Shown: piece by piece, positions 35,559 through 60,452 of the stretch | How the letters are laid out: every line of letters starts with the position of its first letter | Numbering within the stretch: position 1 is the first letter of the stretch | Origin: Candidatus Moraniibacteriota bacterium | GTDB taxonomy: Bacteria > Patescibacteriota > Minisyncoccia > Moranbacterales > GWC2-37-73 | DNA: 64,000 nt | Reading direction: 5' to 3' | Assembly (NCBI GenBank): GCA_003507445.1 | Contig: DNVR01000004.1 | Coordinates: 28,243-92,242, forward strand | The notes under the pieces: model-generated | What the model was told of the DNA's origin: nothing | The model's database searches: none | Seen by the model: only the letters and a program-made list of their open reading frames with translations | Made by a program: the position numbers and the translations under genes

Positions 35559-35579
35559 TCTATCAGTATTAATGCAATA

Positions 35580-36467: not shown

Positions 36468-36469
36468 AG

Positions 36470-38061: not shown

Positions 38062-38086
38062 TCTATTTATAGTTATTAATAAAAAA

Positions 38087-38779: not shown

Positions 38780-39135
38780 ACACATTTCTGCTCTTTGCAA
38801 CTGGTATAATCCTTGGTTCTTTTGGCGGTGTTTTATTGAAAGCTGGATCAAAAAATATCCTCTTTTCTGGAACTATAACAAAAGAATTACTCCTAAGCTT
38901 ATTACTTAATTGGAAAATATTTCTTGGTCTTATTTGCTACTTTATACCAGCAATTATATGGATATTTCTCCTAAGAAAATATCCACTGAGTTTTGTACAA
39001 CCAATCCTGGCATTAACCTACGTTATAACACCAATTCTCGCAATTTTAATACTTAAAGAAGGAATACCACCAGCAAGATGGCTTGGAATAATTATAATTA
39101 TTATTGGTGTTTTTATTATATCAAAAACACAATAA
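38776..39135 (+). CDS. SMR/EamA-like 4-TM small membrane protein (ArnE/ArnF-like lipid-linked sugar flippase candidate)
   Basis: 119 aa with four TM helices. Motifs GGVLLKAGSK and FVQPILALTYVITPILAILILKE resemble ArnE/ArnF. A 4-nt ATGA overlap with the methyltransferase gene. Confidence 0.55.
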   Translation: MNTFLLFATGIILGSFGGVLLKAGSKNILFSGTITKELLLSLLLNWKIFLGLICYFIPAIIWIFLLRKYPLSFVQPILALTYVITPILAILILKEGIPPARWLGIIIIIIGVFIISKTQ

Positions 39136-39147
39136 AATGATCGACTA

Positions 39148-41148: not shown

Positions 41149-41169
41149 TTTATTATTAATTATAATTTA

Positions 41170-42579: not shown

Positions 42580-42584
42580 ATAAG

Positions 42585-43433
42585 TTATATATTTAAATAT
42601 TTTTTAATTACATCCGAATTTTTTTCATAAAAAAATGCAGTCTTTTTTAAGCCCTCTTCCATAGAAATCAGTTTAACTTTTTCAAGCAAAACATTATTTC
42701 CCAATGGGCATAGATTATTTTCCGTATTTTTCTTATCAATAATTTCAATCTCTTTTATAAAAACTTTTTTCTTACAAATTTCAAGCAAATCACCAATTGA
42801 AATAAGTTTTCCAGTTGCCAAATCTGTTTTACCATAAAAATCATTTTCAATAACCGAGCGCACAAACTTTGCCATATCTTCTGCGTATATAAAATCTCTT
42901 TTAGCACTCATATCATTTATTTCAATTGGTATATTATTTTGGTAATTAAACAAAATATTTGCAATTAGACTTCCTTGTTTATATGGAATCTGAAATTTTC
43001 CATAAATGTTAAATAATCTTAAAATCGTTAGATTGATATTATTTTTTTCACAATAATCCTCATAAAACTTTTCTAATATAATTTTTCTTTTAGCATACGG
43101 TGATTCTGAATTTGCATAAATGACCGCGGAAGAAAATAGGATGAGATGACTGTTTTTTAAAAATCCAATATTTTCAATTAGTTTTAATTCTTCTTTCTCA
43201 AATTCATCATCTAAAACTTGATTATCGATGAGATGAACATAGGCATCAAATTTTTTAAGATTTTTATCTTTATATGCATTTCCCTCAATAAAAACATCTT
43301 TTCTACCTGAACCGAAGACGGATTCTTCTATGCCTAAAGAATAGCAAGAAAAAACATCAGATAATTCAGCTGCGATATTTCTACCAATGAAACCCTCCCC
43401 ACCCAGGATTAAAATTTTCTTTTTATTATTCAT
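42585..43433 (-). CDS. NAD(P)-dependent epimerase/reductase, SDR family (short)
   Basis: 282 aa with ILILGGEGFIGRNI (Rossmann) and SPYAKRK (YxxxK). Confidence 0.55.
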   Translation of the reverse strand: MNNKKKILILGGEGFIGRNIAAELSDVFSCYSLGIEESVFGSGRKDVFIEGNAYKDKNLKKFDAYVHLIDNQVLDDEFEKEELKLIENIGFLKNSHLILFSSAVIYANSESPYAKRKIILEKFYEDYCEKNNINLTILRLFNIYGKFQIPYKQGSLIANILFNYQNNIPIEINDMSAKRDFIYAEDMAKFVRSVIENDFYGKTDLATGKLISIGDLLEICKKKVFIKEIEIIDKKNTENNLCPLGNNVLLEKVKLISMEEGLKKTAFFYEKNSDVIKKYLNI

Positions 43434-46400: not shown

Positions 46401-46509
46401 CGAAATCAAAATTTGCTTTTTGCATTATAAAACTTTCCAGTGTTTGCTGGATAAATTTTTCATGATTATACGCCACACAAACTATGGAAACTATTGGCTT
46501 ATTACTCAT
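43426..46509 (-). CDS. tri-domain GT2-GT2-GT4 fusion glycosyltransferase
   Basis: 1027 aa. Domain 1 has IVSIVCVAYNHEKF...IIGEDCSTD...CDGDD. Domain 2 has ISVVTPFFNHGKT...IIVNDGSTD...LDSDD. Domain 3 has NVLILMPWLTFGGAE ... KAEGFPLSNVEAMAMGVCVIASDVGG (GT4). Confidence 0.7.
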   Translation of the reverse strand: MSNKPIVSIVCVAYNHEKFIQQTLESFIMQKANFDFEIIIGEDCSTDKTREIIKEFEKKYPNVIKPIFREKNIGTTENFFDTLRCANGKYIVICDGDDFFIDENKLQLQVDFLDKNLDYAVCFHSVKIFFENKEGAKSIYPRAVDLPELTTLSLLKNNFIPTMSVMYRRQNYKDLPKINIVPGDWYLHLYHAKFGKIGFIDKTMSAYRRHSGGIWWDSHGNKEGLFKKHGVSFIAMYFELLKLFGKNLEYRQIISYHVNYLLNVIIEIDKKEKSGMINEILLKFPNNMSEILSECLIDNNEFKKDIVKKDIVIQKNELIIQKQSDELHDLYHSRVVTPAIKLRYILRNVVYSFRSLRNKIEGRIVCLAKKYLSEEIRSVIRPYLPRRYRVLAKKVKNEKWEGILISVVTPFFNHGKTLGETVESVLGQTFQNFEYIIVNDGSTDAESNIVFEKINHPKIIKITQENQGVAAGRNNGIIKAKGKYILCLDSDDIIAPTYLEKMLVVLESNPDIDIVYSHMNFFGIEERIFEEPEFDPQLLYSSNIITTASVFRKSVWEKSGGYKRGIGFEDWEFWINLVENGSKARLFPEPVFNYRRAVESRYIDDKKKRDENIEKIKKLHPRYLKRIKELKENWIMQRNIFEDNSQFVNLKNSKEYLQGKKEKKNVLILMPWLTFGGAETLVYNYCSKIKNDFNISIITGLKSENEWEYKFKEVTNNIYHLPNLFLREEEYFNFVANYIESRKIDVLHIVHNSSFYEMLPDLRKRFPRLKVISTVFNVVADHFNNSIKYADFIDIYTTDNTKVLKAYDEQSAISSKEKIVIYNGIDCNGKFNPVLYDRLAEREKLNINKDDIAVYFMGRLSPEKNPDIFVEAAKKVLDNGVNIKFFVIGDGPMRMEIEKTINEFGDKNLSYLGYQADIPCYLSTADIFVLPSKAEGFPLSNVEAMAMGVCVIASDVGGVSDAIKDAETGFLMQPNSPSELVEKIEYVLSQKEILEKISKNARKSVEENFSIEILADKYKNLYENINE

Positions 46510-46519
46510 ATTTTTTTAA

Positions 46520-47779
46520 TTATAAACATTCCATGCCATCTAGATCAAACACGGGAATTTTTAAATTTTTAAAGACAATATTTCTTTCAGAAAATGAATC
46601 ATCTATAAATATTGACTCGGGTTTAATAAACCCAAATTTATGTTCATCATTTTCAATATGAATAATTTCAGCAAATAACTCTTTGGATATCTTACAATAT
46701 TCTAAGCTTTTATATATATCTCCCGAGTGTTTTGTTATTAGAAATACTGATTTATTTTTATTTAAACATCTATATATAAAAGCAATAACACTTACATTAA
46801 CATTTCCATTTTTTAATACCAATGTATCATCAAAATCAATATACACATTTTTATAAGATATATCCATCTTATATTTAGCACTTAAAGACCTATCAATCTC
46901 AATATTAAAATCATTTAACAATATAGAAACATTAACATCCATGAGATCATACAAGCTTAATAATGGTAGATTTACACCTCGCACCCTGGACAGAGACATT
47001 GTCCCAGCAACACGTGGAGAAATTTCCAGCAATACCAATTTACCATCTGCACGCTCTTTGAGTTGAAAAAACCAAACACCCCTAAACACCAACGTACTAT
47101 TTATCTTATTTGCTATTTCTAAAAATATCTCATTATTCTCTAATCGAGAATTTACACTAATACCATTTGATACGCGAACCCTCTCCCTACCTTGAGCAAA
47201 AAGTAAAACGCCTTCTTTGTTTGTAAAGCAATCAATGGTATATTCTTTGCCTGGTAAATATTCCAACAGCATTAGTGATGCATCTCTCCTTATTGAAAAC
47301 CTAACTTCTTCAATATTATTAGCTTTAAAAGTGCCCTTTGACCCCTGTCCGATATTGGGTTTCAAAAATATTGGGAATTTTAAATTATCTTCAATATTGA
47401 AAACGATGGGCGTGTCTATTATATTTTTAAATAATTCGTATGTATCTTTTTTTGATCTACAAATTTTACATGTCTTAAATGGAGAAGTTACTACAATTGC
47501 ACCTATTCTTTCTTGATTTTGTGAAAGATTCAAAACAACACTATCATGAGCAGGAAAAATAAAGTCAATTTTATACTTTTTTACAACTTCACAAATAGCA
47601 TCGATAAAATTATCATCCTCTACAAATGGAATTTTTGATATATAATTTTCATAAACAAAAAGACCATGGTCATCCACTGAGGATGCACCATACAAATTAA
47701 AGTCTTTTGAAAATTCCAACGACCTTCCTATTTCTAGCCCAATTTCACTTCCACATGGGAAAACTAATACATTTTTCAT
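46520..47779 (-). CDS. ATP-grasp domain protein with C-terminal HAD-like domain
   Basis: 419 aa with FPIFLKPNIGQGSKGTFKA (ATP-grasp central domain) and LLEISPRVAGT. The C-terminal VYIDFDDTLVLKNG is DxDxT. Confidence 0.55.
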   Translation of the reverse strand: MKNVLVFPCGSEIGLEIGRSLEFSKDFNLYGASSVDDHGLFVYENYISKIPFVEDDNFIDAICEVVKKYKIDFIFPAHDSVVLNLSQNQERIGAIVVTSPFKTCKICRSKKDTYELFKNIIDTPIVFNIEDNLKFPIFLKPNIGQGSKGTFKANNIEEVRFSIRRDASLMLLEYLPGKEYTIDCFTNKEGVLLFAQGRERVRVSNGISVNSRLENNEIFLEIANKINSTLVFRGVWFFQLKERADGKLVLLEISPRVAGTMSLSRVRGVNLPLLSLYDLMDVNVSILLNDFNIEIDRSLSAKYKMDISYKNVYIDFDDTLVLKNGNVNVSVIAFIYRCLNKNKSVFLITKHSGDIYKSLEYCKISKELFAEIIHIENDEHKFGFIKPESIFIDDSFSERNIVFKNLKIPVFDLDGMECL

Positions 47780-47788
47780 TAATTTGTT

Positions 47789-49327
47789 TTATTTTTTAAA
47801 TAAATCGCCAAGATTATTTACAACAATAGCAGGAAATGCATCTTGAGATATTTTTTCTAAATCTATCCTATTGGTTTCTCCTGATAAAACACAAACAAAA
47901 TCTATCCCAGCATTATCAGCAAGCCTTTTATCAGTATGCAGCCTGTCACCTACAATTGCCAACTTTTCTTTACCGTATTTTTTTATTTGTTTTTCAATTA
48001 ACGAAACCGATGGCTTCCCTAATATCATTTGAGGATAAAATCCGTTTGTTTTTTCTATAAGTGCCATTATTGAACCAATATCTGGAATTGGACCATTTTC
48101 ACTTGGGCAAAAGGAGTCTGAGTGAGTAGCAATATAATCTACTCCTTTTTTATTTAACAAAATAACCGCTTTTTTCAATTTATCATAAGTAATTTCATCA
48201 TCATAAGTTAAAATAACTGCTTGATTTCTATTTAAATCATATTCGATTGATACCCCAGGTAATTCTTTTTTAATGAATGATTTTACTTGTTTATTTGCAA
48301 TTAAATATAAAGATGTATACCGCATTGTCTTAATATAATCAATCAACGAAAAAAGTGGTGTGGTAATCTGATTTTCACTAACAGAAATACCAAACTTAGA
48401 TAATTTTTTAATGTAATCATTAGGAACTTTTGAAGTATTATTAGTTAAATAATAGAAATCAAAAATGTTGTCATTCTCTCTTACAAAATTTACAGCACCT
48501 TCTATCGAAGTATTTCCTATACAAAGAGTGCCATCTATATCGCAAATAAAAGCTTTTTTAGCTCCATAATTAAATCTGGAAAAAATTTTATCCGCTACTG
48601 ATAAATCATCTAGATTATCAATTTCAACCCAATTATATTTCCTTACATCAAAAGGCAGAACATTAACAATTCTAAATAAAACAGGGAATGAAACTTCTGT
48701 CCACTGATTTAAGTCCTTCTTGATCTCAATAAATTCACCAATTATTTTTAACAATAACTTTGCAGATTGGTAGCTATATTTATATAAATCTACTGAAACA
48801 CCTGCCGACTTAGAAGGTGAAATATTTTTAGAAATATCTACTATGTTTCCAGATTCAGAAAGTTCAATTTTCATTGATTCCTCTATATATACTCCCCTTT
48901 TTATAGCAATTGCATTATCTAGACCACAGTTTACGAATTCGTATATTAATTTTTCATCATAAACACAATCAGCGTTATTTATAAATAATGTATCGAATTT
49001 AGATTTACCTTCATTTATATATTTTAACGCAATGTATAGAGAATACATATTATTAGTAGTTCTATAATTACTATTTTCCAAAATCTTAACTTTTGGATAT
49101 TTAAAATTAATATATTCATTTATCTTATCAGAAAAATATCCTGCAACAATTACAATATCTTCTTCTCTTAGCCCAGCTTTTAGGTATCCATCTATTTGAT
49201 ATTCTATTATTGATTTTCCACCCACGCACACTAAAGACTTTGGCTTAATATCCGTAATTGGTGCAAGCCTACTTCCAATACCCGCAGCAAGAATTATCAC
49301 TTTTTTATAATCTTTCATCTTTGACAT
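47789..49327 (-). CDS. bifunctional sugar/alcohol-phosphate nucleotidyltransferase (LicC/GCD1-like) + HAD-IIA phosphatase
   Basis: 512 aa. The N-terminus VIILAAGIGSRLAPIT is a nucleotidyltransferase G-loop. The C-terminal half carries FICDIDGTLC ... GKPS ... VGDRLHTDKRLADNAG, which are HAD-IIA motifs. Confidence 0.65.
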   Translation of the reverse strand: MSKMKDYKKVIILAAGIGSRLAPITDIKPKSLVCVGGKSIIEYQIDGYLKAGLREEDIVIVAGYFSDKINEYINFKYPKVKILENSNYRTTNNMYSLYIALKYINEGKSKFDTLFINNADCVYDEKLIYEFVNCGLDNAIAIKRGVYIEESMKIELSESGNIVDISKNISPSKSAGVSVDLYKYSYQSAKLLLKIIGEFIEIKKDLNQWTEVSFPVLFRIVNVLPFDVRKYNWVEIDNLDDLSVADKIFSRFNYGAKKAFICDIDGTLCIGNTSIEGAVNFVRENDNIFDFYYLTNNTSKVPNDYIKKLSKFGISVSENQITTPLFSLIDYIKTMRYTSLYLIANKQVKSFIKKELPGVSIEYDLNRNQAVILTYDDEITYDKLKKAVILLNKKGVDYIATHSDSFCPSENGPIPDIGSIMALIEKTNGFYPQMILGKPSVSLIEKQIKKYGKEKLAIVGDRLHTDKRLADNAGIDFVCVLSGETNRIDLEKISQDAFPAIVVNNLGDLFKK

Positions 49328-50589
49328 ATATTTGTATGATATCTTATTAACTCCACAACTCTCTCACTATTATCGCCATCAATATGCTCATAAAATAGCT
49401 GCCTAGCGAGCTTATATTGAACTGTGTTTATTTGAATATTTTTTTTAAGCTCATCTTCAACTGAATTCAAAATATCCTCAAATTTCGATAAAATTGGACC
49501 AGGAAACACCGTGCCCATATCATAAAGTAACCCGCGTTGCTTTTCTTCGTAATGTTTTTTATCGTATGCAAAGCTAAAAACTGGTTTATTTACATACAAG
49601 GCATCCAAAAAAAGCGAAGAATAGTCCGTAATAAAAATATCAGAAAATCTAACAACTAAACCAGCTTCATCAATAACTGATTGTCCTAAATCAAAAATAT
49701 ACTCGTTATCAATAAATTTTTCAATATTACACAATTCGGAACTATTTCTATAATAATGAAGACGTACTCCCAAAACAGCATTGTTTCTTTTTAAAAAATT
49801 TACCATTTTTTTTATCTCATCGTCTGAAAATTGATAGTAGACAGATCCAGAGACTGCAACCTCTTTATACGTTGGAGCATAAATGATTAATTTTTTATCG
49901 CCTTTTATTTGTAAAATTTTATCACTTTGAGTTTTGTAATTTTGAGAAAGGAGCTCCAACGCCTTAACTAAATAGTCGTTTCTAGGAAGTCCTGTTATCC
50001 AAATATTCTGGGGCTTAATCGGATAAAAACAAGCACCCATAGCATAGCTGTCGATTGAAGAAGACGCGATCAATCCAGTATAAAAACTTCTCTCTTTTTT
50101 TATTTCTGATACATTTTCCCCAATTTCAGAAGGAGAAAGATGCTGAATTTTTTTCAATGGTATACCATGCCAAAGGTTAACAATGATTCTTTTCTTAAGA
50201 TTCATTTTTATCACGTTATGATTCCATCTTTCTGAAAAATTCATAAACACAGTATGGTCGCACAAAACAACACCTGACTGCAAAAGAAGCATCAAACCTT
50301 TAGCAGAAAACATATTAACTATTTCAGTGTTTTCATAGTTATCAATATTTAAATCTATTTCATCTGAAATAGTAAAGATAATTTTTTTAATACTAATATT
50401 ATTCTTAACAAATTCAAAAACACCCCTCGTGTTCCCCATGAATTTACCTCTTTCTATGAGATGACAAGGAAAGGCCCAGTAATTATTTTTTTTAGGCCAA
50501 AAATAATCAAGTATTCTAAATACTAAGAGTAAAAAGGGGATTTTAATTTCATTTTTTATTATCATGCTATATCCAGATTTAACAAACAT
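49315..50589 (-). CDS. CDP-glycerol/polyol-phosphate transferase, TagF/TagB family
   Basis: 424 aa with NLWHGIPLKKI and LIIYAPTYKE (YAPTFR motif), characteristic of teichoic-acid-type glycerophosphotransferases. Confidence 0.65.
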   Translation of the reverse strand: MFVKSGYSMIIKNEIKIPFLLLVFRILDYFWPKKNNYWAFPCHLIERGKFMGNTRGVFEFVKNNISIKKIIFTISDEIDLNIDNYENTEIVNMFSAKGLMLLLQSGVVLCDHTVFMNFSERWNHNVIKMNLKKRIIVNLWHGIPLKKIQHLSPSEIGENVSEIKKERSFYTGLIASSSIDSYAMGACFYPIKPQNIWITGLPRNDYLVKALELLSQNYKTQSDKILQIKGDKKLIIYAPTYKEVAVSGSVYYQFSDDEIKKMVNFLKRNNAVLGVRLHYYRNSSELCNIEKFIDNEYIFDLGQSVIDEAGLVVRFSDIFITDYSSLFLDALYVNKPVFSFAYDKKHYEEKQRGLLYDMGTVFPGPILSKFEDILNSVEDELKKNIQINTVQYKLARQLFYEHIDGDNSERVVELIRYHTNICQR

Positions 50590-51683
50590 TCATTTATTGT
50601 CGCACATATTATTTCAATATTTTTCATCTCCAGTCCATAATACAGCGGTAAACATAAAATCCTTAACGAGATATCCTCTGAAACTGGACAATGTTGTTGA
50701 TTCTTGAGATATGTAAGAGTGTTTAAAGATGGATAAAAATATCGCCTAGGATAGATATTTTTATCATTTAATTTTTTCATTAAATGCAATGTTTCAACTT
50801 CATCTTTCAAAACGATAGGATAATAGGAATAATTATATTCCACCTCACATGGAATCATCATTTTGTTAACCACGTCGGATAATAAGTAATCGTAAGTCTC
50901 GGCGATTTCTTTTCTTGATTTTATTATTTTTTCAACATATTTCAAATTGCACAATCCCATTGCCGCTTGAAATTCCGATGCTTTTGCGTTTATTCCCAAA
51001 CAAATGTATTTGTCGTCATGATGCCCAAATCTTCTTGTAAGCTCAATTTTTTCACTAATTTTTTTTTCTTTTGCTATAATACAGCCACCCTCAATCGTGT
51101 GAAACAATTTTGTTGCATGAAAACTACACGTTGAAATATCTCCATAACTCAACAATGATTTACCTTTATAATTAACACCAAAAGCATGTGCACCATCATA
51201 AATAACCTTCAAATTATACCTCTTCGCAATTGATTCAATTTTTTCAATATCACAAGGGATTCCAAAAACATGAACTGCCAGAATTGCTTTGGTATTTTTC
51301 GTTATCGCTTTTTCTATTTTTTCAGCATCAATGCAAAAATTATCAGAATTAATGTCAACGAAAACTGGAGTACATCTCTCCCATAATATCGCTGAAGTTG
51401 TGGCAACATATGAAAATGGCGTAGTAATGATCTCTCCCTCAACTATATCTAGAGCATTTAGCGCCAATTGAATAGCAATTGTTCCATTTGAAACAATATG
51501 CATATCCTTTACCTTTAAATATTTTTTCACCTTTTCTTCAAGCTCATTCAGTAGCATTCCTTGATTAGTTAGGTGGCAAGAATCCCAAATACTATCTAAA
51601 TATTTCTGATATTTAGACATTGGGGGAAGAAAAGATTTGGTTACATAAATATTTTTCATTTTATTACAATATTTTTCATCCAT
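50562..51683 (-). CDS. DegT/DnrJ/EryC1-family PLP-dependent sugar aminotransferase
   Basis: 373 aa with SNGTIAIQLAL and SFHATKLFHTIEGG, which carries the PLP Lys. It follows the ABC ATPase gene directly. An alternative start is 51659. Confidence 0.8.
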   Translation of the reverse strand: MDEKYCNKMKNIYVTKSFLPPMSKYQKYLDSIWDSCHLTNQGMLLNELEEKVKKYLKVKDMHIVSNGTIAIQLALNALDIVEGEIITTPFSYVATTSAILWERCTPVFVDINSDNFCIDAEKIEKAITKNTKAILAVHVFGIPCDIEKIESIAKRYNLKVIYDGAHAFGVNYKGKSLLSYGDISTCSFHATKLFHTIEGGCIIAKEKKISEKIELTRRFGHHDDKYICLGINAKASEFQAAMGLCNLKYVEKIIKSRKEIAETYDYLLSDVVNKMMIPCEVEYNYSYYPIVLKDEVETLHLMKKLNDKNIYPRRYFYPSLNTLTYLKNQQHCPVSEDISLRILCLPLYYGLEMKNIEIICATINECLLNLDIA

Positions 51684-52919
51684 TTAACTGTTCCATGAGT
51701 GTTTAATATCACAAAAACCTCTGTAGCTATTTTTTATTCCACTTGAATATATCTTTAATACCTTGTAACTCAATTTAAGATCATAAGGGTTTATTTCAAT
51801 ATCCTTCCAGCATCCAACATTGATAATGTATTCCCCTTTCAAAATTGGCAAATCATTAAAGTGTAGCACGATACTATTTTTAGTTTTATCTACATCTATA
51901 TTATCCATTTGTGTATTATACCCAAAAATTTGACCTCCAGATACCGCATGTAAACCTATTCCAAAATTAAGCTCTTTAATTTCACCATGAATCTCAAAGT
52001 CAATTTTAATATCCAATTCATCACCAGTTTCGAAAACACTTTTATCTTTACCATTTTTATCTAAAAATTCCACTCCCGTAATTTCAACAATTTTATTAGA
52101 ATTAGATTTATCAACTTTACCAAAAACAACAACTTTCTTTTCTTTTTCTGCTTGTTCATCGCTAATTCTTTTTTCTTCATCTGACATATTTTCATAAACA
52201 TATTCATTAGCCACATCAATAGCTTTCCCTATTTTCAATATTTTTCCGTTTCGAAGAAGCATCGCTCGATCGCAATATTTTTCAACAACCAGGGTATCAT
52301 GTGTCACCAAGATCACAGTTTTGCCTTGATTTTTGTATTTTGTAAATTCTCTAATACATTTTGACTGGAAATTATTATCGCCCACTGCCAGCACTTCATC
52401 CATCAGCAGAATCTCGCGGTTGGCGTGAATGGAAACGGAAAAAGCCAGGCGGACTTGCATACCGGAGGAATAATTTTTGAGTTTTTGATCAATAAAACGT
52501 TCCAGTTCAGAAAATTTCACAATTGAATCAAATTTCTTGTCAATTTCTTTTTTGGTCAGACCCAAAACCGTGGCATTAAGATACACATTGTCGCGACCAC
52601 TTAGTTCTGGATTAAAACCAATTCCCAATTCCAAAAACGGCGAAATCCGCCCATCAATTTCCACACTCCCCTTGTCAGTCTGATAAATCCCAGCCAGAAT
52701 TTTCAATAGCGTGCTTTTCCCACTCCCATTTCGCCCAATAATCCCAAAAAATTCCCCCTTCTTCACCTCAAAGCTAACGTCATCCAACGCCTTAAATTCC
52801 TCATAGCCCTTATTGCGGCTAAATGCGCTCACGGCTGCGCCACGCAAAGAAGACACCTTCTCATGAGGAATTTTGAAGGTCTTTGAGACGTTTTTGACGC
52901 TGATTGCTATATCATTCAT
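51684..52919 (-). CDS. wzt: ABC transporter ATP-binding protein, Wzt/TagH-like with C-terminal extra domain
   Basis: 411 aa with Walker A GRNGSGKST, signature YSSGMQVRLAF and Walker B LLMDEVLAVGD. A beta-rich C-terminal domain of about 150 aa resembles the Wzt carbohydrate-binding domain. Confidence 0.8.
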   Translation of the reverse strand: MNDIAISVKNVSKTFKIPHEKVSSLRGAAVSAFSRNKGYEEFKALDDVSFEVKKGEFFGIIGRNGSGKSTLLKILAGIYQTDKGSVEIDGRISPFLELGIGFNPELSGRDNVYLNATVLGLTKKEIDKKFDSIVKFSELERFIDQKLKNYSSGMQVRLAFSVSIHANREILLMDEVLAVGDNNFQSKCIREFTKYKNQGKTVILVTHDTLVVEKYCDRAMLLRNGKILKIGKAIDVANEYVYENMSDEEKRISDEQAEKEKKVVVFGKVDKSNSNKIVEITGVEFLDKNGKDKSVFETGDELDIKIDFEIHGEIKELNFGIGLHAVSGGQIFGYNTQMDNIDVDKTKNSIVLHFNDLPILKGEYIINVGCWKDIEINPYDLKLSYKVLKIYSSGIKNSYRGFCDIKHSWNS

Positions 52920-52987
52920 TGAAGTTGTTCGGTTAATGAGTTAACGCGTTAACGAGTTTGCTAGACTCATCTTACGAGTTAAAGGGT

Positions 52988-53377
52988 TTATTTTTTGATA
53001 AATTCTTTGTTTTGCTTTTTCTCAACTAAATATGCTATAAATTTTCCAATCTGAGCTGACAATATTTCCAACTCTTTATTTGTTTTTTCGAATTCAAACT
53101 CAGTAATATATTTTATTGCAAATGCTATGTGAAGTTGATTTCTAACCTCTCCTGCAGAACCTTTCGCGATTCTTAAAAAACGCGCGAACTCATTATTGTT
53201 GTTTTTCTCAAATCCTTCTACTATGTTAGAACTAACGGAAACAATAGCTCTCCTTATTTGATCGCGCAATCCAAAATCTCTAGCAAAATCTTTTTCTGAC
53301 GTATAATCGTAAATTACTTTTGTTATTCTTAAACTATCCTTCCAAATATTCAATTCTTCAAATTTTTGTATTTTCAT
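52988..53377 (-). CDS. four-helix-bundle protein (TIGR02436 / Avd-like, so-called 23S rRNA intervening-sequence protein)
   Basis: 129 aa. KIQKFEELNIWKDSLRITKVIY ... ARFLRIAKGSAGEV is typical of this family. It is flanked by 11-bp perfect inverted repeats gttaacgagtt (52948-52958) and aactcgttaac (53378-53388), plus GTTAACGCGTTAAC palindromes. Confidence 0.7.
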   Translation of the reverse strand: MKIQKFEELNIWKDSLRITKVIYDYTSEKDFARDFGLRDQIRRAIVSVSSNIVEGFEKNNNNEFARFLRIAKGSAGEVRNQLHIAFAIKYITEFEFEKTNKELEILSAQIGKFIAYLVEKKQNKEFIKK

Positions 53378-53544
53378 AACTCGTTAACCCGTCAACACGT
53401 TAACTAAATAATAAATAAACTTTGGACTTCCTTAGTCATTGGAAATTTAGATTTAGGATTTTATGGTTATTCTTGACGCTAATGGCAATATTATCTTCCA
53501 TCTAAATATTGTAGCTTATTTTTTAATTCCATTCCAGCTTTTTC

Positions 53545-54585
53545 CTATTTTTCAATATTTTTAAATTTATAGTAAGTCGCTTTTCCATTTCCCTGTTTTT
53601 CAATAATATTCAAAGCTATCAGCTTTCTAAAATCAAGATTTCTTGTTGGCTTTGCCCTATCAATCAATTTTGCATAGTCACGATCACTGATAAAGCCATG
53701 TTTTTCAATATATGCGATAATTTTTTTATGATAAGACTTCAACTCATTTTCTGGAGATGCAGTTTCTTGGTTCAGTTGCTTTTCAACCCTAAGCAGCTCA
53801 TCAATGATTCCATCCGTAAAATATTCAAGCCAAGAAGTGAAGTCTATGTCATTTTTAATGTCATAATAGTTGCCAAGTAAACCAACTTCTTGAAAATATT
53901 TGCTCACATTTTGATTGTAATAATTTTCAAAACTGAAAAGATTGAACGTGTTGAGACCCATCTTGGCAAGCAACACCTTTGTTGCCAAGCGGGCAGTTCG
54001 TCCATTTCCATCAATGAAGGGATGAATGATGACAAATTGTTTATGAAAAATACCCGCCAAAATCAATGGATCGATTTTATTTTCATTTTTAATCACATAT
54101 TCAAAAATTTCATTCATCAATTTTGGCACTTCCAAATGTTCAGGCGGAAGATAGACCGTTTGACGAGTTTTTGGATTGTTGACAAAAACTGGCTCCTGCC
54201 TCAATTTCCCTGACCTATTTTTTTCAATCAAATCCTGAGTGACAGTTTTTTGAATTTTCAAAATCAAAGACAAGTCGAAAATCTGCTTTTCATCGGCAAT
54301 CAATTCATTCAATTCAATCAATGCCTTATTGTAGTTCAAAACTTCTTTTTCACTGTCGCGAATATGTTCGGGCTTATTTTTCAAAATCCTCTTTACGTCA
54401 GTGAGCGGCAATGGATTACCCTCAATACTCGTGGAAGAAAAAGCTGATATTTCTCTTGCTCTTTTTTCCAGTTCAGCCAGAATTACGCCAGAAAAACTCC
54501 GACTGTTCAGGCCAGTGACTATTTCCGTTATTCTTTTAATATTGGCCAATAACTGACCAGAAATGATATATTTTGGATGAAACAT
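53545..54585 (-). CDS. Fic/DOC-family protein (AMPylator-type, class II with N-terminal inhibitory motif)
   Basis: The core motif HPFIDGNGRTARL (HPFx[DE]GNGR) is present. The N-terminal STSIEGN matches the (S/T)xxxE(G/N) inhibitory helix, and a C-terminal winged-helix-like domain follows. The track start 54591 is TTG; the first ATG is at 54585. Confidence 0.85.
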   Translation of the reverse strand: MFHPKYIISGQLLANIKRITEIVTGLNSRSFSGVILAELEKRAREISAFSSTSIEGNPLPLTDVKRILKNKPEHIRDSEKEVLNYNKALIELNELIADEKQIFDLSLILKIQKTVTQDLIEKNRSGKLRQEPVFVNNPKTRQTVYLPPEHLEVPKLMNEIFEYVIKNENKIDPLILAGIFHKQFVIIHPFIDGNGRTARLATKVLLAKMGLNTFNLFSFENYYNQNVSKYFQEVGLLGNYYDIKNDIDFTSWLEYFTDGIIDELLRVEKQLNQETASPENELKSYHKKIIAYIEKHGFISDRDYAKLIDRAKPTRNLDFRKLIALNIIEKQGNGKATYYKFKNIEK

Positions 54586-54599
54586 TAGCAATTTTTAAA

Positions 54600-54790
54600 T
54601 CATGTTATATAGACTTATTATAGACGATTGATAGACGATTGTCAACCCCACATATCCCCGCCAGAATTTTCAAAAGGGTTGATTTTCCACTCCCTTTTCG
54701 CCCAATAATCCCCTGCCTACCAAACAAGCAGACAAAAAATTCCCCTTCTTTATACTGTTAAATCCTCGCCATAGCTTGTTCTGGAAATTT
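54600..54790 (-). pseudogene. relic fragment of a second wzt-like ABC ATPase gene (Walker A region only)
   Basis: The minus strand encodes GIIGRKGSGKSTLLKILAGI, about 85% nt-identical to wzt 52690-52760. A 21-nt insertion and a frameshift follow, with a stop shortly after. The fic promoter is embedded in it. Confidence 0.5.
54617..54645 (-). promoter_or_regulatory. sigma70 promoter, perfect consensus TTGACA-17-TATAAT driving fic
   Basis: Minus strand reads ttgaca atcgtctatcaatcgtc tataat. The -35 is at 54640-54645 and the -10 at 54617-54622, about 31 nt upstream of ATG 54585. Confidence 0.55.
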
Positions 54791-54828
54791 TGCTTGATTT
54801 TGTTTGATATGGCATCATATTAACCTTA

Positions 54829-55422
54829 TCATATAACAAAAAACAGCACTTTGCAATCCGAGGCAAAGAAAAAAGGAAGAACGAAAATTCGTTCTCCCTT
54901 GTATTTACTCTCCAAAAATACCCTGCTTACTACCTTCGCGGCACCTCCTCGATGATGATTTTTTTTATGTTTTTTTTGTATTTCTTCGTTGGCATCATCA
55001 CGAACAGAAATGGCTTCAAGAATTCGAGATCTGCCAGAAGAACTCATGCTCCACAAAGAAATTCGAAGTGCATTCAGTTCAACTTTTTTACCGTCCTTGA
55101 AAATCTCCTTGAGTAGTAGTATGAACTCCTCCAGTGATTCTTTCAATATCTCCATATCGATTTTTGGATCTGATATGGAAATTTTCTCAACAAGTAGTTG
55201 AAGCAGCTCTTTGAGATTTTGAATCTTTGGCGAATCCTGTACCCTATTGATCTTATTTTGATCTGTCAGGGATGAAGGAAATGCATCGGGGTTGAATTTG
55301 TACGAATTAACATCGCCTGTTTGCGGTGCAAACCCTTTTTCTCCCGGCACTAAACCCTGAGCACTACGAAGCGTTAAATCCTCTCTTGTTGACAAGTGAA
55401 CGTTCTGATTTGGCACTGACAT
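54829..55422 (-). CDS. hypothetical protein (GC-richer than window average)
   Basis: 197 aa with no recognisable domain. It is about 40% GC by eye versus about 31% for its surroundings. Confidence 0.35.
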   Translation of the reverse strand: MSVPNQNVHLSTREDLTLRSAQGLVPGEKGFAPQTGDVNSYKFNPDAFPSSLTDQNKINRVQDSPKIQNLKELLQLLVEKISISDPKIDMEILKESLEEFILLLKEIFKDGKKVELNALRISLWSMSSSGRSRILEAISVRDDANEEIQKKHKKNHHRGGAAKVVSRVFLESKYKGERIFVLPFFFASDCKVLFFVI

Positions 55423-55590
55423 TGCTTTTCTCCTTTTTTCAGTTTATTTTTCTGCAATTCTGCAGAGTTCTTGGCAGATTTCTTGTTGTTAAAACTACCA
55501 ACTTACCATCCCTTTTTATACAGCATTTTCAAGAACCTGTCAATAGCAAAAAAGGCAGGTTGAATAATTCAAACAAAAACAATTCTTGTC

Positions 55591-55989
55591 TTATTTGTTT
55601 TTCTTCAATTTTCGGGAAGTCAAAATTATTTGAACAAGGCTAATGATGACGAAGAGTGCTGAAGAGAAAAATGCTACGGTTCCCTTTTCAATTGGGAAAA
55701 TGAAATTATGCGAATATGAAGGTGATATCAAAATTACCAGCATTGAAAGCGGAACCCAGATGCGAGCAAAACGCCACCAGGATTGGAAAATTTTATCCTG
55801 CATTGGGTATGTGATGAGAGAGAAGATAAAAAGAGTAATTGTTGGGAAAAAAACAAATGCCACTGAATCGTCATGCGATCTGCTGCAGATTAAATTTATC
55901 AAACAAAGACCTTTCACTGAAATAGTTATCGCAACACTAAAAATTATTGCCCCGCAAACACTAAGAAATAATACTCTTTTTTTTGTCAT
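55591..55989 (-). CDS. small membrane protein (3-4 TM), hypothetical
   Basis: 132 aa and hydrophobic, located immediately downstream of the giant secreted protein gene. Confidence 0.4.
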   Translation of the reverse strand: MTKKRVLFLSVCGAIIFSVAITISVKGLCLINLICSRSHDDSVAFVFFPTITLFIFSLITYPMQDKIFQSWWRFARIWVPLSMLVILISPSYSHNFIFPIEKGTVAFFSSALFVIISLVQIILTSRKLKKNK

Positions 55990-56014
55990 ATATTTATATC
56001 AATATTTATTAAAG

Positions 56015-59000
56015 TTAATAATTTATTTTAATAATACCTTTTTCTGTTAGTATACTCGGAATTATCATTCCTGTCATTTTTTTCCAAACTGGACGACGGT
56101 CGGCATTGTCATCCCTATCATCATCACCAATTTCATTTGGTTTTTCCATAAACCAAGTTTGATTTTTGTTTGGAAAATAATGAGATTCCAATGACATTGA
56201 CTCGGTGCTCAAATGTGAAGCAAAGAGCAAAAACTTTTTTCTTCTCCAATCTTGCAACCACTTGTATTGCAAATTTCCATTAGAAATTTCTGTCTTGTTT
56301 CCATCGTATGAAATTGAAGAAAGTGACAAATCAATTCTCCTGCTTTTGTCCTTTTTCTTTTCCCAAACAATTTCAGTCTTGTGCCCTGCCTCATCTGTCA
56401 AAGTTGCAGTGTCAATGATTTTCTTTTCTTTTTTCTTTTGAAGCCATCCCCAATTCCAAAATTTGTTTTTCTTGCTACTTTGCTTATTATCAATAAAAAC
56501 AATCTGCTCTTTTATTTCAACTGAAACATTTTGAGAAAGATTGTCGCTTCCAATAACATCAAGTTCTTGAGTTTTTGCATTGAAAATAAGTTTGGCTTCG
56601 GGTGCAGTTTTATCTATCTTAACTGCAACTTTTTGAGCTTCTTCAGTATTTCCTTGTTTATCAGTAGAAAAATATTGAATTTCAAAAACACCTTCTGCAG
56701 TTAAAGTGATAGAATCCGAATATACCTTCCAAGTTTTGCCATCATCCAATGAAAATTCCGTTTTTTCAAGACCACTACCTTCATCATTGTCTTTTGCAGA
56801 CAGTGAAATTTTGACATCACTTATATACCAATCATTGTTTCCATGTGTGCCTTCAATGGAACTTGTAGTAACAGGAGGAGATTGATCAAGAGTCACAATC
56901 TCTCCAATTTTCGGTTTCAAATCAAAATCAATAGTACCATTTCCATCTTCATCAATTTCAAGATTTGAAGCGCTTTGCAGATCATCTGCAACATTAAAGG
57001 TTACTTTTGTTTCAGGAGTTACTGGCATATCTTTAAATGTCACTTTACCCAGACTCTCATCACCCCTAAATTCTTCAACCGCAAATGTGAAAGTTCCCGT
57101 GTCATAACCTTTCATTTTTATTTTGCTTGAAATATTTTCGTTTGTGAAAATATATTTTACATCCCCAAATTGTTTGAAATATGTTCCGGGGATTTGCTCT
57201 TTAATTTCTCCATCAGGATTTATGCCAGTGCAATTTTCTTCATTATCATTATCACACAATTCGAATGATAGCGGCGAATGGAGAGAATATTGAAGACGTT
57301 TCTCATCTGACGCTGATGGAACTTCTGACGAAAAATATTCATAATCAGAAATTGGCTTGGCTTTGTTACCAATATTATCTGCGATAAAAGAATTGAGTTC
57401 TGGAATTTCAAGAATATTGGCATGTTCAGCATTTCTTAATAAAAAAATATTATAAGAATCGAGATCAAACCAATATTTCTCCACACCACTCATCCACAAT
57501 GCACTTGGCGTGACCACTGTTCCATCGCCATCAATTGTAAATTTGAAATCAGGATCCAAAACATCAGCCCCGCTGAAACAAGAGCCAGCATCACAATATC
57601 GTGTTTTCTCGACACTATAATCAATGCCACTAAGCGTAGCTGGCACGCCCCAACCTGCAATCTGAATAACCTTCACTCCTTCAGGAACATTCCAAGAATC
57701 CAAACTATTATGCGTATTTTTCGAATTTTCCAACAAATTAACATTTGATCTGGCAGGAATATCAACATCAGAATTTACTGCAAGAACTTTACGAAAATCA
57801 TCTCTTAAAAAGTCCATCAACCCTTCATTGGAATTAATTTCGCCACTATAATTATCTTTCAAATCAGAAAGCAAACCGGTATTAAATTTAACGACTGGCG
57901 TTTGAACTTTTGAAAAATATTCATTTGAAGGCAACAGATTGTACGCCCCTGGCATATTTTCTCCCAAACTTCTTGCTGTTTTGGTGCTTAATACTGGAAA
58001 CAAATTTTGTTTCTCCCCGTGAAGAAGAGCGGCAATTGCTGCTGGCGTGCCGACCTGAGGCACTGCCACGAAAATTATTTTGTCCACAAGATTTTTTGCT
58101 TCCTCACTTCCCAGTTTTTGCATCAGGGCTTTTGCAACCAATCCCCCATTTGAATGCGCCACAATGGTCACTTTTCCTGTTTTGGATGATGACGCCAAGC
58201 GTCTGAGTTCAGAAATTGTATACGGGGAATCAGTTTCCTTATTATATGAAATATTATCGCCATCTTTTTTACCGCTTGTCAAAACATCATTAAGCGAAAG
58301 TCGCCAATCATACGGAGCAGCAATCCAATCATTAATCATCTTGTCTTTGTTTTTCAAATCATTCATTTTTGCAATAAAAGATTTGTAATAATTTATTTGT
58401 CCCACAGGAAGAATATTAGTTTCGTCCAATACATCGCGTGTGTAGATGTCATATTCGTCAGTACTTTCTCCTTCCTTGTTCAAAAAAAGTTTTTCGACAT
58501 CAGCATTGCGATTTGGCTCCCACAATTGATTCTCACAATTTACCAGCAAACAACTTGGATCATCTTTGGCATAAAGTCGGCTCGCCTTAAGACCCGGCAA
58601 AAACAAAACGTTGGATGCATAATCAACGCCGAATTTGGATGGGCTAAATCCATTCAAAACATAATCCCCTTTAATAATTTCTCCACCTATATCATAATTA
58701 GGTTTTTGTCTTGGTCCAACGGAATTGCCATACCAATTATTTTCCAATTTGGCTATATTTTTATTATGAATATATTCTTTCGTATTTATATCATATCTAC
58801 TTGATGAAGAAATCAAAGCAGTATTTTGAAGATTACCCTCAAAATTGGAGCTCACAATTTCAATCAAATCTCCACGATTATTCTCGTAATAATAATTACC
58901 AACAACCACGTCAGCATATTTGTTATTCAAAAAATCGGAATTTTCTATCCGCACTTTTCCACTTCCAAACTCCACTGCAGGATTTTCTCTTATTATTCGT

Positions 59001-59563
59001 GGTGCTTCCTGTGCTTTGGCAGTTTGAACAAAAGATTTAAAAATATTGAAAGATGTTACACTGGAACAAATTTCAATATCCTCATAATCATACGACCCCA
59101 TATTCTCAATTTTCACATAATTAAAAATTGAGGATTCATTACCTTCATAAAATGACTCGTCGTAAAAACCCACCACTCCACGTGGAGCTGAGGTACAAAA
59201 TTCATAATACATTTTTTCATTTTCAGAATATTGGGAATAATCAGGATTAGCTTTCGTAAATATAATCGGCTCATCTTTGGTTCCTTGAGCCACAATTCTT
59301 CCATACAAGACTTCCAAATCCAAAATCTCCACGCGTGTACCTTTTTCAATCGTAACAGTAGCGCCATCAACAATCACAACTGGTTTCCATATATCATTAT
59401 ATGTAACAGTTCCTCGCCAAGTCACATCTTCATTAATAACAATATAGTTGTCATAATCATCCCAAATATTATCCTCCGAAATTGGAAAATTAGCACTAGC
59501 ACATCTTGGGAAAAAAGCTGAAACAACCAGCACAACAAAAACATACTGTAATATTTTTATCAT
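56015..59563 (-). CDS. giant secreted protein with alpha/beta-hydrolase (lipase/LCAT/PGAP1-like GxSxG) domain and beta-rich flanking domains
   Basis: 1182 aa with a signal peptide MIKILQYVFVVLVVSAFFPRCASA. The central VTIVAHSNGGLVAKAL is a nucleophile elbow (AHSxGG). Long beta-rich N-terminal and C-terminal regions flank it. Confidence 0.6.
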   Translation of the reverse strand: MIKILQYVFVVLVVSAFFPRCASANFPISEDNIWDDYDNYIVINEDVTWRGTVTYNDIWKPVVIVDGATVTIEKGTRVEILDLEVLYGRIVAQGTKDEPIIFTKANPDYSQYSENEKMYYEFCTSAPRGVVGFYDESFYEGNESSIFNYVKIENMGSYDYEDIEICSSVTSFNIFKSFVQTAKAQEAPRIIRENPAVEFGSGKVRIENSDFLNNKYADVVVGNYYYENNRGDLIEIVSSNFEGNLQNTALISSSSRYDINTKEYIHNKNIAKLENNWYGNSVGPRQKPNYDIGGEIIKGDYVLNGFSPSKFGVDYASNVLFLPGLKASRLYAKDDPSCLLVNCENQLWEPNRNADVEKLFLNKEGESTDEYDIYTRDVLDETNILPVGQINYYKSFIAKMNDLKNKDKMINDWIAAPYDWRLSLNDVLTSGKKDGDNISYNKETDSPYTISELRRLASSSKTGKVTIVAHSNGGLVAKALMQKLGSEEAKNLVDKIIFVAVPQVGTPAAIAALLHGEKQNLFPVLSTKTARSLGENMPGAYNLLPSNEYFSKVQTPVVKFNTGLLSDLKDNYSGEINSNEGLMDFLRDDFRKVLAVNSDVDIPARSNVNLLENSKNTHNSLDSWNVPEGVKVIQIAGWGVPATLSGIDYSVEKTRYCDAGSCFSGADVLDPDFKFTIDGDGTVVTPSALWMSGVEKYWFDLDSYNIFLLRNAEHANILEIPELNSFIADNIGNKAKPISDYEYFSSEVPSASDEKRLQYSLHSPLSFELCDNDNEENCTGINPDGEIKEQIPGTYFKQFGDVKYIFTNENISSKIKMKGYDTGTFTFAVEEFRGDESLGKVTFKDMPVTPETKVTFNVADDLQSASNLEIDEDGNGTIDFDLKPKIGEIVTLDQSPPVTTSSIEGTHGNNDWYISDVKISLSAKDNDEGSGLEKTEFSLDDGKTWKVYSDSITLTAEGVFEIQYFSTDKQGNTEEAQKVAVKIDKTAPEAKLIFNAKTQELDVIGSDNLSQNVSVEIKEQIVFIDNKQSSKKNKFWNWGWLQKKKEKKIIDTATLTDEAGHKTEIVWEKKKDKSRRIDLSLSSISYDGNKTEISNGNLQYKWLQDWRRKKFLLFASHLSTESMSLESHYFPNKNQTWFMEKPNEIGDDDRDDNADRRPVWKKMTGMIIPSILTEKGIIKINY

Positions 59564-59608
59564 ATTTGTTTATTTAAATATATTATTATTAATTTTATTG
59601 ATATTATA

Positions 59609-59652
59609 CCAACAAACAAAAAGTTCGTAAAGTTATAAACCTTACGAACTTT
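59609..59652 (-). terminator. rho-independent terminator for wzm
   Basis: Plus strand reads aagttcgtaaag ttataaac cttacgaactt (12/11-bp stem). On the minus strand it is followed by TTTTTGTTTGTT, 25 nt after the wzm stop. Confidence 0.6.
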
Positions 59653-59675
59653 TTAACTTTCGACTTTTGACTGTT

Positions 59676-60452
59676 TTAGATTTCTTCCGCAACCTTGGGA
59701 ATAAATTTTCGATATGAAAATATGCTTAGGGCGAAAGCGCCAAAAACGATGGCGATGAACACGGTGTATTGCGAAAGGCTGGCGAAATGATTGTTGATGA
59801 GTGATTCCTTGGTAAAGTGAATAATAAATGCCAAGGGATTAAGTAGAATAAATTTATGATATGCTGCCGGCAAAGTTACTAAGGGATAAATAATCGGCGA
59901 CGCGTACAAAATTATCATCAATAAAACTTCCCAAATCATCGCCAGGTCGCGAAATTTAACATACAGCGGTGCAGTGATGAGTGAAAAAGAAAGAACGATA
60001 ATATATATGAAAACAGAAAACATTAAAAACAAAAGAACTGCTGGAATGCTCGGCATGAAACCTTTAAGCGCAAAGAAAAAAACAATCACAACAAGGTTCA
60101 TCAAAAATATCAAAGTTGCATTAATTGTAGAAGCAATAATAATCGTCCAACGTGGCACATAAATTTTGGTCACAAGTTGAGCTTTTGATAAAAGTGAACT
60201 CATTCCTGCTGTCGTTCCTTCAGAGAAAAAATAAAACATCATAAGCGCAACCAACAACTGCAACGAATATGTGCTCATTCCGGTTCCACGAGGATTAAAC
60301 ATTGAAGAAAAAACAAAATTCATCACCGCAAAAGTAAGCAATGGCTTGAGCAGCGCCCACAAATATCCCAAAACACTTCCGTGATAACGAAGTTTAAAAT
60401 CAGTTTTCGCTAAAGCCCAAATCAGCTCCTTATAATTTTCGTGTTGTTTCAT
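59676..60452 (-). CDS. wzm: ABC-2 type polysaccharide/teichoic-acid export permease (Wzm/TagG-like)
   Basis: 258 aa with 6 TM helices. The N-terminus ELIWALAKTDFKLRYHGSVLGYLWALLKPLL is the canonical ABC-2 permease start. Confidence 0.8.
   Translation of the reverse strand: MKQHENYKELIWALAKTDFKLRYHGSVLGYLWALLKPLLTFAVMNFVFSSMFNPRGTGMSTYSLQLLVALMMFYFFSEGTTAGMSSLLSKAQLVTKIYVPRWTIIIASTINATLIFLMNLVVIVFFFALKGFMPSIPAVLLFLMFSVFIYIIVLSFSLITAPLYVKFRDLAMIWEVLLMIILYASPIIYPLVTLPAAYHKFILLNPLAFIIHFTKESLINNHFASLSQYTVFIAIVFGAFALSIFSYRKFIPKVAEEI

Follow-up and report, generated by a model that had tools for sequence, protein, structure and literature searches.

An exported LCAT-family alpha/beta-hydrolase and an orphan four-helix membrane protein form a conserved two-gene module in Patescibacteria

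What would a secreted, lipase-like protein of 1182 amino acids (aa) do for a tiny, host-dependent bacterium whose group is reported to lack fatty-acid and phospholipid synthesis? Patescibacteria (the Candidate Phyla Radiation, CPR) account for a large share of bacterial diversity, and the question is raised here by an open reading frame (ORF) at 56015..59563 (minus strand) of a 64,000-nucleotide (nt) stretch of Candidatus Moraniibacteriota DNA (assembly GCA_003507445.1, contig DNVR01000004.1, positions 28,243 to 92,242), referred to below as the window. An earlier note, made from the sequence alone, had described the product as a giant secreted hydrolase, possibly of an episymbiont lineage. 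A hypothetical protein encoded in a Candidatus Moranbacteria metagenome-assembled genome (MAG) has exactly the same sequence (100% identity), which bears out the candidate status of the source lineage; its length was given correctly, but lies near the family median of 1114 aa in our survey of loci, so that it is giant only in relative terms. We conclude with near certainty that the gene encodes an LCAT-family alpha/beta-hydrolase and that it belongs to a conserved two-gene module; the product is predicted to be an exported multidomain serine hydrolase of the LCAT/LPLA2 type. The second gene (55591..55989, minus strand), which the earlier note had overlooked, starts 25 nt past the enzyme stop codon and encodes a 132-aa orphan four-helix membrane protein, referred to as the partner.

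The LCAT/LPLA2-like catalytic domain occupies about 430 aa (residues 316-745; 57329..58618, minus strand). Pfam LCAT (PF02450) matches residues 379-690 with 63.8 bits against a cutoff of 21, covering profile positions 56-358 of 392, and exceeds its cutoff likewise in 41 of 41 homologs (34-78% identical) that make up our alignment set. DUF7379, PGAP1 and other alpha/beta-hydrolase Pfam families align with the nucleophile region only and all stay under their cutoffs; PGAP1 (PF07819) reaches 20.1 bits versus 24.3, is confined to residues 458-509, and is found in 18 of the 41 homologs at E<=1e-3. From the PGAP1/LCAT/lipase-like context proposed originally, LCAT therefore stands and PGAP1 falls away, and membership in the PGAP1/Tle4 family was ruled out by the sub-cutoff profile score together with the absence of a type VI secretion system (T6SS) context. 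The domain carries the motifs FLPGLKASRLY (oxyanion region), AAPYDWR, AHSNGG (residues 469-474), VPQVGTP (in VAVPQVGTP, residues 499-507), GWGVPAT, DGDGTVV and EHANILE. S471, D680 and H714 are invariant in 41/41 homologs, as are P323-G324 of FLPGLxxSxLY and Y418-D419-W420-R421; with its LCAT-family motifs kept, the catalytic domain is the best conserved portion of the enzyme. Based on this invariance, secondary-structure context and motif correspondence, the predicted triad consists of Ser471 as nucleophile (codon 58151..58153), Asp680 of DGDGTVV as acid (57524..57526) and His714 of EHANILE as base (57422..57424), all on the minus strand.

Sequence and profile searches of the PDB returned weak results, and a fold comparison was therefore needed. 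The direct sequence search with the enzyme yielded a chance match only (ferredoxin-NADP reductase, E 0.26), the profile search weak matches only, with 4r1d at E 0.0015, and a profile alignment to LPLA2 and LCAT sequences, with AHSxG and DGDGTV in register at weak scores, served as a lead only. In the full-length AlphaFold2 (AF2) model, with a mean predicted local distance difference test (pLDDT) value of 84.2, Ser471 sits between strand 465-470 and helix 473-484 at a local pLDDT of ~90, which is the geometry of a nucleophile elbow. The 12 top Foldseek matches in the PDB are all LPLA2 or LCAT, with a best E of 8.3e-15 and target-relative template-modelling scores of 0.71-0.72 for LPLA2, and E values down to 1.3e-8 and scores of 0.62-0.65 for LCAT. 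Ig-like (immunoglobulin-like), adhesin and S-layer domains rank after these, and the nearest bacterial structure by fold is Tle4. Since the top structural matches are LPLA2 and LCAT and the model displays the elbow, an alpha/beta-hydrolase fold is predicted around the GxSxG, and the lack of such a fold, named in the earlier note as its refutation, is not what the model shows. Both the AHSNGG nucleophile elbow and the lipase/acyltransferase-type hydrolase read from the sequence earlier are thus borne out, and profile score, modelled elbow geometry and predicted overall fold jointly assign the enzyme to the LCAT family.

Within this family the enzyme is distinct. LPLA2 (PLA2G15) and LCAT, which share PF02450 with PDAT and plant LCAT-like phospholipases, are 15-19% identical to it. 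In contrast to LPLA2 and LCAT, the enzyme is bacterial (Patescibacteria), is fused to an N-terminal beta-helix and to ~440 aa of C-terminal Ig-like/OmpL47-type domains, and is encoded with a partner containing four transmembrane helices; no activator such as ApoA-I is known for it, and its activity is predicted. The residue following PG is Leu or Ile in the enzyme family, as in ordinary lipases, whereas LPLA2 has Asp and LCAT has Cys at this position (motif alignment and PMC6027918). More than 1,300 significant homologs were found among 8,000 scored candidates, and those carrying names are nearly all from Moranbacteria, Parcubacteria, Paceibacterota and Kaiserbacteria.

Criteria for a Sec signal peptide of the signal peptidase I type, applied by hand, were a basic n-region, a hydrophobic h-region, an AxA motif within ~30 residues and absence of a lipobox, and the enzyme N-terminus, MIKILQYVFVVLVVSAFFPRCASA|NF, displays all of them: a basic residue (K3), a hydrophobic stretch (4-18) and A-S-A at 22-24. 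This signal-peptide-like segment (residues 1-24; 59492..59563, minus strand) forms a low-confidence helix at 3-17 in the model, and an equivalent hydrophobic segment, in many cases with an AxA-type end, is present in 41/41 homologs, in agreement with the signal peptide that had been proposed. A lipoprotein reading was ruled out, as no lipobox precedes Cys21 ('FPRC' is not one). The sole other transmembrane-like segment of the enzyme is a buried core strand (496-514). A C-terminal anchor was likewise ruled out, the C-terminus having no hydrophobic segment, and none of the 41 aligned homologs has a C-terminal transmembrane segment or hydrophobic anchor.

Instead of the ~450 aa of beta-rich sequence per side stated in the earlier note, the flanks are asymmetric, with ~290 aa at the N-terminus (25-315) and ~440 aa at the C-terminus (746-1182), and their domain identities go beyond that note. 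Residues 25-315 (58619..59491, minus strand) are modelled as a right-handed parallel beta-helix of the pectate-lyase-like kind, a putative binding or targeting module, and this region varies within the family. On the C-terminal side, residues 746-900 (56864..57328, minus strand) are all-beta in the model and form a beta-sandwich (Ig-like) region with Foldseek matches to SiiE BIg, PKD, intimin and S-layer Sap domains. They are followed by an OmpL47-type beta-barrel/Ig-like surface domain at residues 901-988 (56600..56863, minus strand), where NCBIfam NF047446 scores 60.4 bits against a cutoff of 40 over residues 913-983 and profile positions 1-68 of 68. The C-terminal domain (residues 989-1182; 56018..56599, minus strand), all-beta by the secondary structure of the model, is without family assignment. 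The enzyme termini are variable across the family; this last domain is matched in 58 of 81 family ORFs and is the last remnant in decayed loci.

The partner is predicted to form four helices (3-26, 42-60, 65-88 and 102-131) in a model with a pLDDT of 81.8 and a predicted template-modelling score of 0.71. By the positive-inside rule, its K/R-rich termini suggest an N-in/C-in topology with two short outward loops; one outer loop is conserved (SPSYxHNWxFPIEKG), and helix 3 carries the conserved motif IFxxWW(K/R)FAxxW. Searches of Pfam, NCBIfam, PHROG and PADLOC gave zero matches to the partner, only noise appearing in NCBIfam (SLATT_4, E 0.036, one homolog), and Foldseek found nothing significant in the PDB, the best match (E 0.7) being a WzxE flippase fragment that is not evidence. 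A holin identity was rejected, as 0 of 28 family members match any PHROG; against PADLOC anti-phage defence models, enzyme and partner both gave zero matches. Profile search of 1.84 billion cluster representatives returned 1,403 partner family members (clusters at 50% identity), 561 of them at E<=1e-10. The members are almost without exception 125-145 aa long and stand alone; the few tandem fusions include P0270 (271 aa) and P0322 (276 aa), each of which joins two partner units.

Linkage of the two genes was surveyed with one genome per GTDB species. The distribution among relatives, which the earlier note had listed as a check, comprises at least 557 stretches of these genomes encoding enzyme relatives, of which the best 80 were examined. 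By record title these 80 loci belong to Moranbacteria, Kaiserbacteria, Lloydbacteria, Zambryskibacteria, Paceibacterota and Minisyncoccia, besides some untrusted labels, and several genomes contain 2-3 enzyme paralogs. Clustering of all flanking ORFs identified the partner as the only conserved neighbour, located on the same strand directly downstream of the enzyme gene in 71/80 loci; most loci without it are contig ends. Across 72 enzyme-partner pairs the two genes are a median of ~11 nt apart, with an overlap of 3-10 nt in several of them. The single enzyme locus without a match to the partner hidden Markov model (HMM), L040, has a divergent 163-aa multi-transmembrane ORF 33 nt downstream. 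In contigs of five relatives, a gene of 125-138 aa without Pfam match follows the enzyme gene in 5/5 cases, and these small proteins are homologous to one another.

A reciprocal search in metagenome contigs, started from the partner, yielded 64 informative loci, 50 of which have the catalytic domain immediately upstream of the partner. With the full-length enzyme profile, the remaining 14 resolve into eight with the C-terminal part of the enzyme on a short contig, two overlapping a full gene, one divergent relative, one disrupted gene and two with an 82-codon remnant of the enzyme C-terminus; the latter two are the same sequence from two samples, with the adjoining partner gene intact. In one further case (L169), a partner-family protein (P0154, profile E 2e-35) follows a 504-aa protein, the product of a truncated LCAT-like gene, which has a BNR-propeller and Big_2 N-terminus and stops just after FLPGIEASRLY...WEP. 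The enzyme-partner pairing thus holds in essentially every locus that can be assessed, and the two genes form an operon conserved across Patescibacteria.

Several observations touch individual loci of the survey. At L101 (2832..4989) the enzyme gene appears to be interrupted: the ORF has an N-terminus that by eye resembles a transposase or helix-turn-helix protein, followed by enzyme profile positions 784-911, and an insertion sequence is a possible cause. In the genome of a 50%-identical relative (L005), the same cluster contains a further LCAT-family paralog (6967..9171) that is shorter, at 734 aa, and the 146-aa gene behind it, unmatched by the partner HMM, could make up a more divergent pair. 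Some loci (L009, L011, L012, L014, L017 and others, L057, L029) are titled 'uncultured Bdellovibrionales', 'Nitrospira sp.' or 'Candidatus Fimivivens'; these MAG loci are Moranbacteria-like, containing enzyme and partner at 34-54% identity, and their titles probably reflect taxonomic mislabelling or mis-binning. The family is not obviously phage- or plasmid-borne, as a tblastn search with the catalytic domain drew a blank in 50,697 phage records, and the plasmid matches, from Bacillus, Microvirga and Streptomyces, were all remote (<=25% identity).

Enzyme and partner co-diverge, but at different rates. Mean identity is 28% for the partner versus 45% for the enzyme catalytic domain, the partner thus diverging faster; their distance matrices are correlated, with r = 0.71 and a Mantel p of ~0.001, and paralogous pairs within one genome diverge in parallel. 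Tandem arrays of 2-4 partner genes following a single enzyme gene occur at 8 loci, the longest run described here being four consecutive partner-family genes at L084 (3991..6827). Intact partner genes also remain beside deleted or truncated enzyme genes (L132/L133, L169). In view of these features the partner constitutes a new orphan membrane-protein family with immunity-like genomics.

LPLA2 and LCAT combine an alpha/beta-hydrolase with membrane-binding and cap domains, form an acyl-serine from a glycerophospholipid and pass the acyl group to water or a lipophilic alcohol, with Ser165/Asp327/His359 as the LPLA2 triad (PMC6027918). We consider it probable that the module encodes an exported, active LCAT-family lipid hydrolase/acyltransferase that works on membranes outside the cell, accompanied by a cognate membrane partner. 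Sec would export the enzyme to the surface or the extracellular space, where the beta-helix and Ig-like/OmpL47 modules could act as variable binders holding it on its own or a target cell surface. The enzyme would then, by analogy with LPLA2 and LCAT, bind a membrane surface and load an acyl chain from a glycerophospholipid onto Ser471. Transfer of this chain to water would amount to phospholipase A activity, releasing lysolipid and fatty acid; alternatively, transfer to a lipid alcohol would be a transacylation that requires neither coenzyme A (CoA) nor acyl carrier protein (ACP). The membrane of a host or neighbouring bacterium would be the likely target; what is released could open a breach in the host envelope, provide acyl lipids or lysolipids, or do both. 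A secreted phospholipase of the CPR predator Vampirococcus has been proposed to have such a double role (PMC8080830), and lysolipids are enriched in CPR-size cell fractions, with other bacteria as their suggested origin (PMC7242380). For a group reported to lack lipid biosynthesis, and considering the Vampirococcus proposal, attack on a host or neighbour membrane that yields lysolipids and acyl chains is the most economical reading.

The partner would be the cognate four-helix protein in the producer's own membrane. Partner arrays, retained orphans, the more rapid divergence of the partner and the polymorphism of the enzyme termini are all traits commonly seen at toxin-immunity loci, and the nearest bacterial structure, the toxin Tle4, has an adjoining immunity gene; for these reasons we favour, at close to an even chance, an immunity-like role in which the partner shields the producer's membrane from its own or a sibling's enzyme. 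That the partner docks the enzyme or receives its product is a tentative second option. The two roles need not exclude each other, and in Enterobacter Tle/Tli the immunity protein is reported to be required also for activating the phospholipase (bioRxiv 10.1101/2023.03.28.534661).

Several points weigh against this interpretation. In principle, an enzyme with the LCAT fold could use other esters as substrates, and a protein that is exported by Sec but shows no recognisable anchor to wall or membrane might be lost by diffusion. The phospholipase immunity proteins known so far (Tli) inhibit as soluble proteins or as lipoproteins and are not of the four-helix membrane type, and outward loops of ~13-15 residues would offer a small inhibitory surface. 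Co-divergence of adjoining genes is expected from common ancestry alone. Finally, the module lies near the exporter genes wzm/wzt in the three closest Moranbacteria genomes, where a clade-local envelope role is possible.

Among the alternatives, the one that fares best takes the module as a pure interbacterial toxin-immunity pair, with the enzyme as a secreted or contact-dependent phospholipase weapon against competitors or the host, the four-helix protein solely as immunity, and lipid nutrition playing no part. The partner arrays, the orphan partners beside decayed enzyme genes and the faster partner evolution all fit such a pair, as do the variable terminal domains of the enzyme, the several paralogous pairs per genome and the structural proximity of Tle4. 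Comparison with known systems nevertheless reveals differences. Tle4 (TplE; PDB 4r1d, the Tle4-Tli4 complex) is a PGAP1-like T6SS phospholipase effector of Pseudomonas aeruginosa delivered into the Gram-negative periplasm, whereas the enzyme has an ordinary signal peptide, not a toxin-delivery system, and its lineage is commonly considered monoderm; Tli4 inhibits as a soluble protein of the periplasm, whereas the partner is a four-transmembrane protein. T6SS neighbours (VgrG/PAAR) or a periplasmic Tli were found neither in the window nor in the 80 loci, and the enzyme has no recognisable toxin-trafficking domain. Polytopic immunity proteins of membrane-acting toxins, such as those of pore-forming colicins or TsaI for the Staphylococcus aureus type VII secretion toxin TspA, are small multi-pass proteins encoded directly downstream of the toxin, often arranged in tandem arrays and kept as orphans. 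The partner resembles them in size, gene position, arrays and orphan retention, but no sequence or fold similarity was detected and the partner falls outside every known immunity family; moreover, toxins of the colicin/TspA type insert into membranes, while the enzyme here would be interfacial. Taken as a weapon only, the module seems an unlikely though serious contender, and it overlaps largely with the reading we prefer, from which it differs in purpose only.

A membrane dock or acceptor would assign the partner a different task: the four-helix protein would tether the anchorless enzyme, or receive or flip its lysolipid or acyl product, providing lipid import independent of ACP and CoA. A signal peptide without an anchor, a tight and obligate coupling as expected for a complex, persistence of the enzyme C-terminal domain as the last part kept beside the partner in decayed loci, and the absence of ACP-dependent lipid synthesis from CPR are consistent with this idea. 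Orphan partner genes and tandem arrays are, however, hard to reconcile with a simple dock, the outward loops are very short, and the partner bears no significant fold or family likeness to transporters or flippases, so that we regard it as improbable. A related arrangement exists in the family I lipases of Pseudomonas and Burkholderia, where the membrane-anchored Lif/LipH foldase is encoded in the operon directly after the secreted lipase and is required for its activity. Lif comprises one transmembrane helix and a periplasmic chaperone domain of ~300 aa, whereas the partner is almost wholly membrane-embedded with loops of <=15 residues. It is very unlikely that the protein is foremost an adhesin, with the beta-helix and Ig-like domains serving attachment and the hydrolase domain being structural or acting on a non-lipid ester (polyester or O-acetylated glycan).

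The surroundings of the module bear on a role in the cell's own envelope. Upstream of the enzyme gene lies an ABC-2 permease (wzm-like) gene (59676..60452), with an epimerase and glycosyltransferases on the same side; downstream, the partner is followed by a 197-aa ORF, a Fic protein, a 23S-rRNA-IVP-family protein and a Wzt-type ATPase (51684..52919). Adjacency to exporter genes, as stated in the earlier note, is thus correct for the window, yet it is not a family trait: wzm lies within 4 kb in 5/80 related loci and wzt in 3/80, and among the contigs of five relatives only closer Moranbacteria share the exporter neighbourhood, distant orthologs being located in unrelated contexts. A terminator-like hairpin of 18 pairs plus a T-run follows the wzm-like gene (59655..59617, minus strand), and a promoter-like site, TTTACG-17 nt-TATAAT with a TG extension (59631..59603, minus strand), agrees with the consensus at 10/12 positions; both elements are consensus matches only. 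Its -35 hexamer lies within the 3' arm of the hairpin and TATAAT just past the stem; the enzyme gene's own TATAAT box, said to overlap the wzm terminator, is hence confirmed as a consensus match, the overlap concerning the -35 element and not TATAAT itself. An Rfam search of the window returned zero RNA families. That the enzyme (de)acylates lipid-linked glycans or teichoic-acid-like polymers exported by Wzm/Wzt, a variant of the glycan remodelling suggested by the earlier note, is highly improbable, since placement beside wzm/wzt, glycosyltransferases and CDP-glycerol glycerophosphotransferase in the window and the two closest orthologous contexts stands against the low wzm and wzt counts and unrelated neighbours elsewhere, a position relative to wzm that varies between relatives, and the promoter-like site that the gene has for itself after the terminator.

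Other features of this region were recorded alongside. About 6.7 kb separate the wzm-like permease from the Wzt-type ATPase, comprising the lipase module, the 197-aa ORF, the Fic gene and the 23S-rRNA-IVP-family gene. In L006, a relative, the lipase module is followed by wzm, IVP and wzt, and this difference implies that 51684..60452 of the window was rearranged or received insertions. The Fic-domain protein (53545..54591, minus strand; Pfam Fic 72.6 bits), encoded between lipase module and wzt, also matches the PADLOC SoFic anti-phage model over nearly its full length (E 5.4e-46). The 23S_rRNA_IVP-family (four-helix-bundle) gene (52988..53377, minus strand) adjoins wzt, an arrangement that recurs in three Moranbacteria genomes (also L005 10551..10910 and L006 13652..14002). 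For the 197-aa ORF (54829..55422, minus strand), which public annotations of this contig also list as a gene, Pfam and PADLOC gave no match, and no homolog occurs in any of the 80 related loci. After the partner, the next commonest real neighbour of the lipase module is a gene with a PaaX_M domain (~190-210 aa, putative regulator), found beside it in L005 (4301..4933), L006 (7139..7750) and L007 (12159..12719) and in 9/80 GTDB loci. At ~34000..52000 the window has a G+C content of 0.28-0.30, versus 0.33-0.40 in most of the remainder; this low-G+C stretch spans a cluster of glycosyltransferase, CDP-glycerol glycerophosphotransferase and aminotransferase genes and resembles a glycan-biosynthesis island.

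Bacterial PF02450 proteins as such were already known, as is evident from database tags, which name some homologs 'lipase/acyltransferase domain-containing protein' or 'pimeloyl-ACP methyl ester carboxylesterase', and from the survey of Wang et al. 2019 (G3, PMC6686919), who, among 8282 bacterial proteomes, counted 42 with PDAT homologs, of which 38 came from 'small genome-sized unclassified bacteria'. Very probably these homologs belong to the same family as the enzyme. That work considered a possible role in triacylglycerol storage only, and export signal, architecture, partner gene and a link to CPR lipids lay outside its survey. Beyond this passing count, we found nothing in the literature on LCAT-family enzymes in CPR. 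As far as the literature was searched, four points are new: a multidomain architecture combined with export, the size that the family reaches in Patescibacteria, an obligate four-transmembrane partner family with immunity-like genomics, and the tie to the question of CPR lipid acquisition.

Lipidomics has suggested that CPR lipids, especially lysolipids, come from neighbouring bacteria (PMC7242380), and exported LCAT/LPLA2-family enzymes are catalysts of the type by which lysolipids arise and acyl chains are transferred independently of CoA and ACP. A bolder proposal, which we hold to be speculative and rather unlikely, is that enzyme and partner represent the missing lipid-acquisition machine of Paceibacteria-type Patescibacteria. 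Acyl chains would then be taken directly from host phospholipids without CoA or ACP, and lysolipids and fatty acids would be released for uptake, or acyl groups passed to acceptor lipids presented by the partner. If true, this would explain both how membranes are built without fatty-acid synthesis and why lysolipids are enriched. The two-gene module is thus a concrete candidate, amenable to cloning, for attack on host membranes, for the scavenging of lipids or for both, and it reveals, within a protein family considered chiefly eukaryotic, a large bacterial branch with an architecture of its own.

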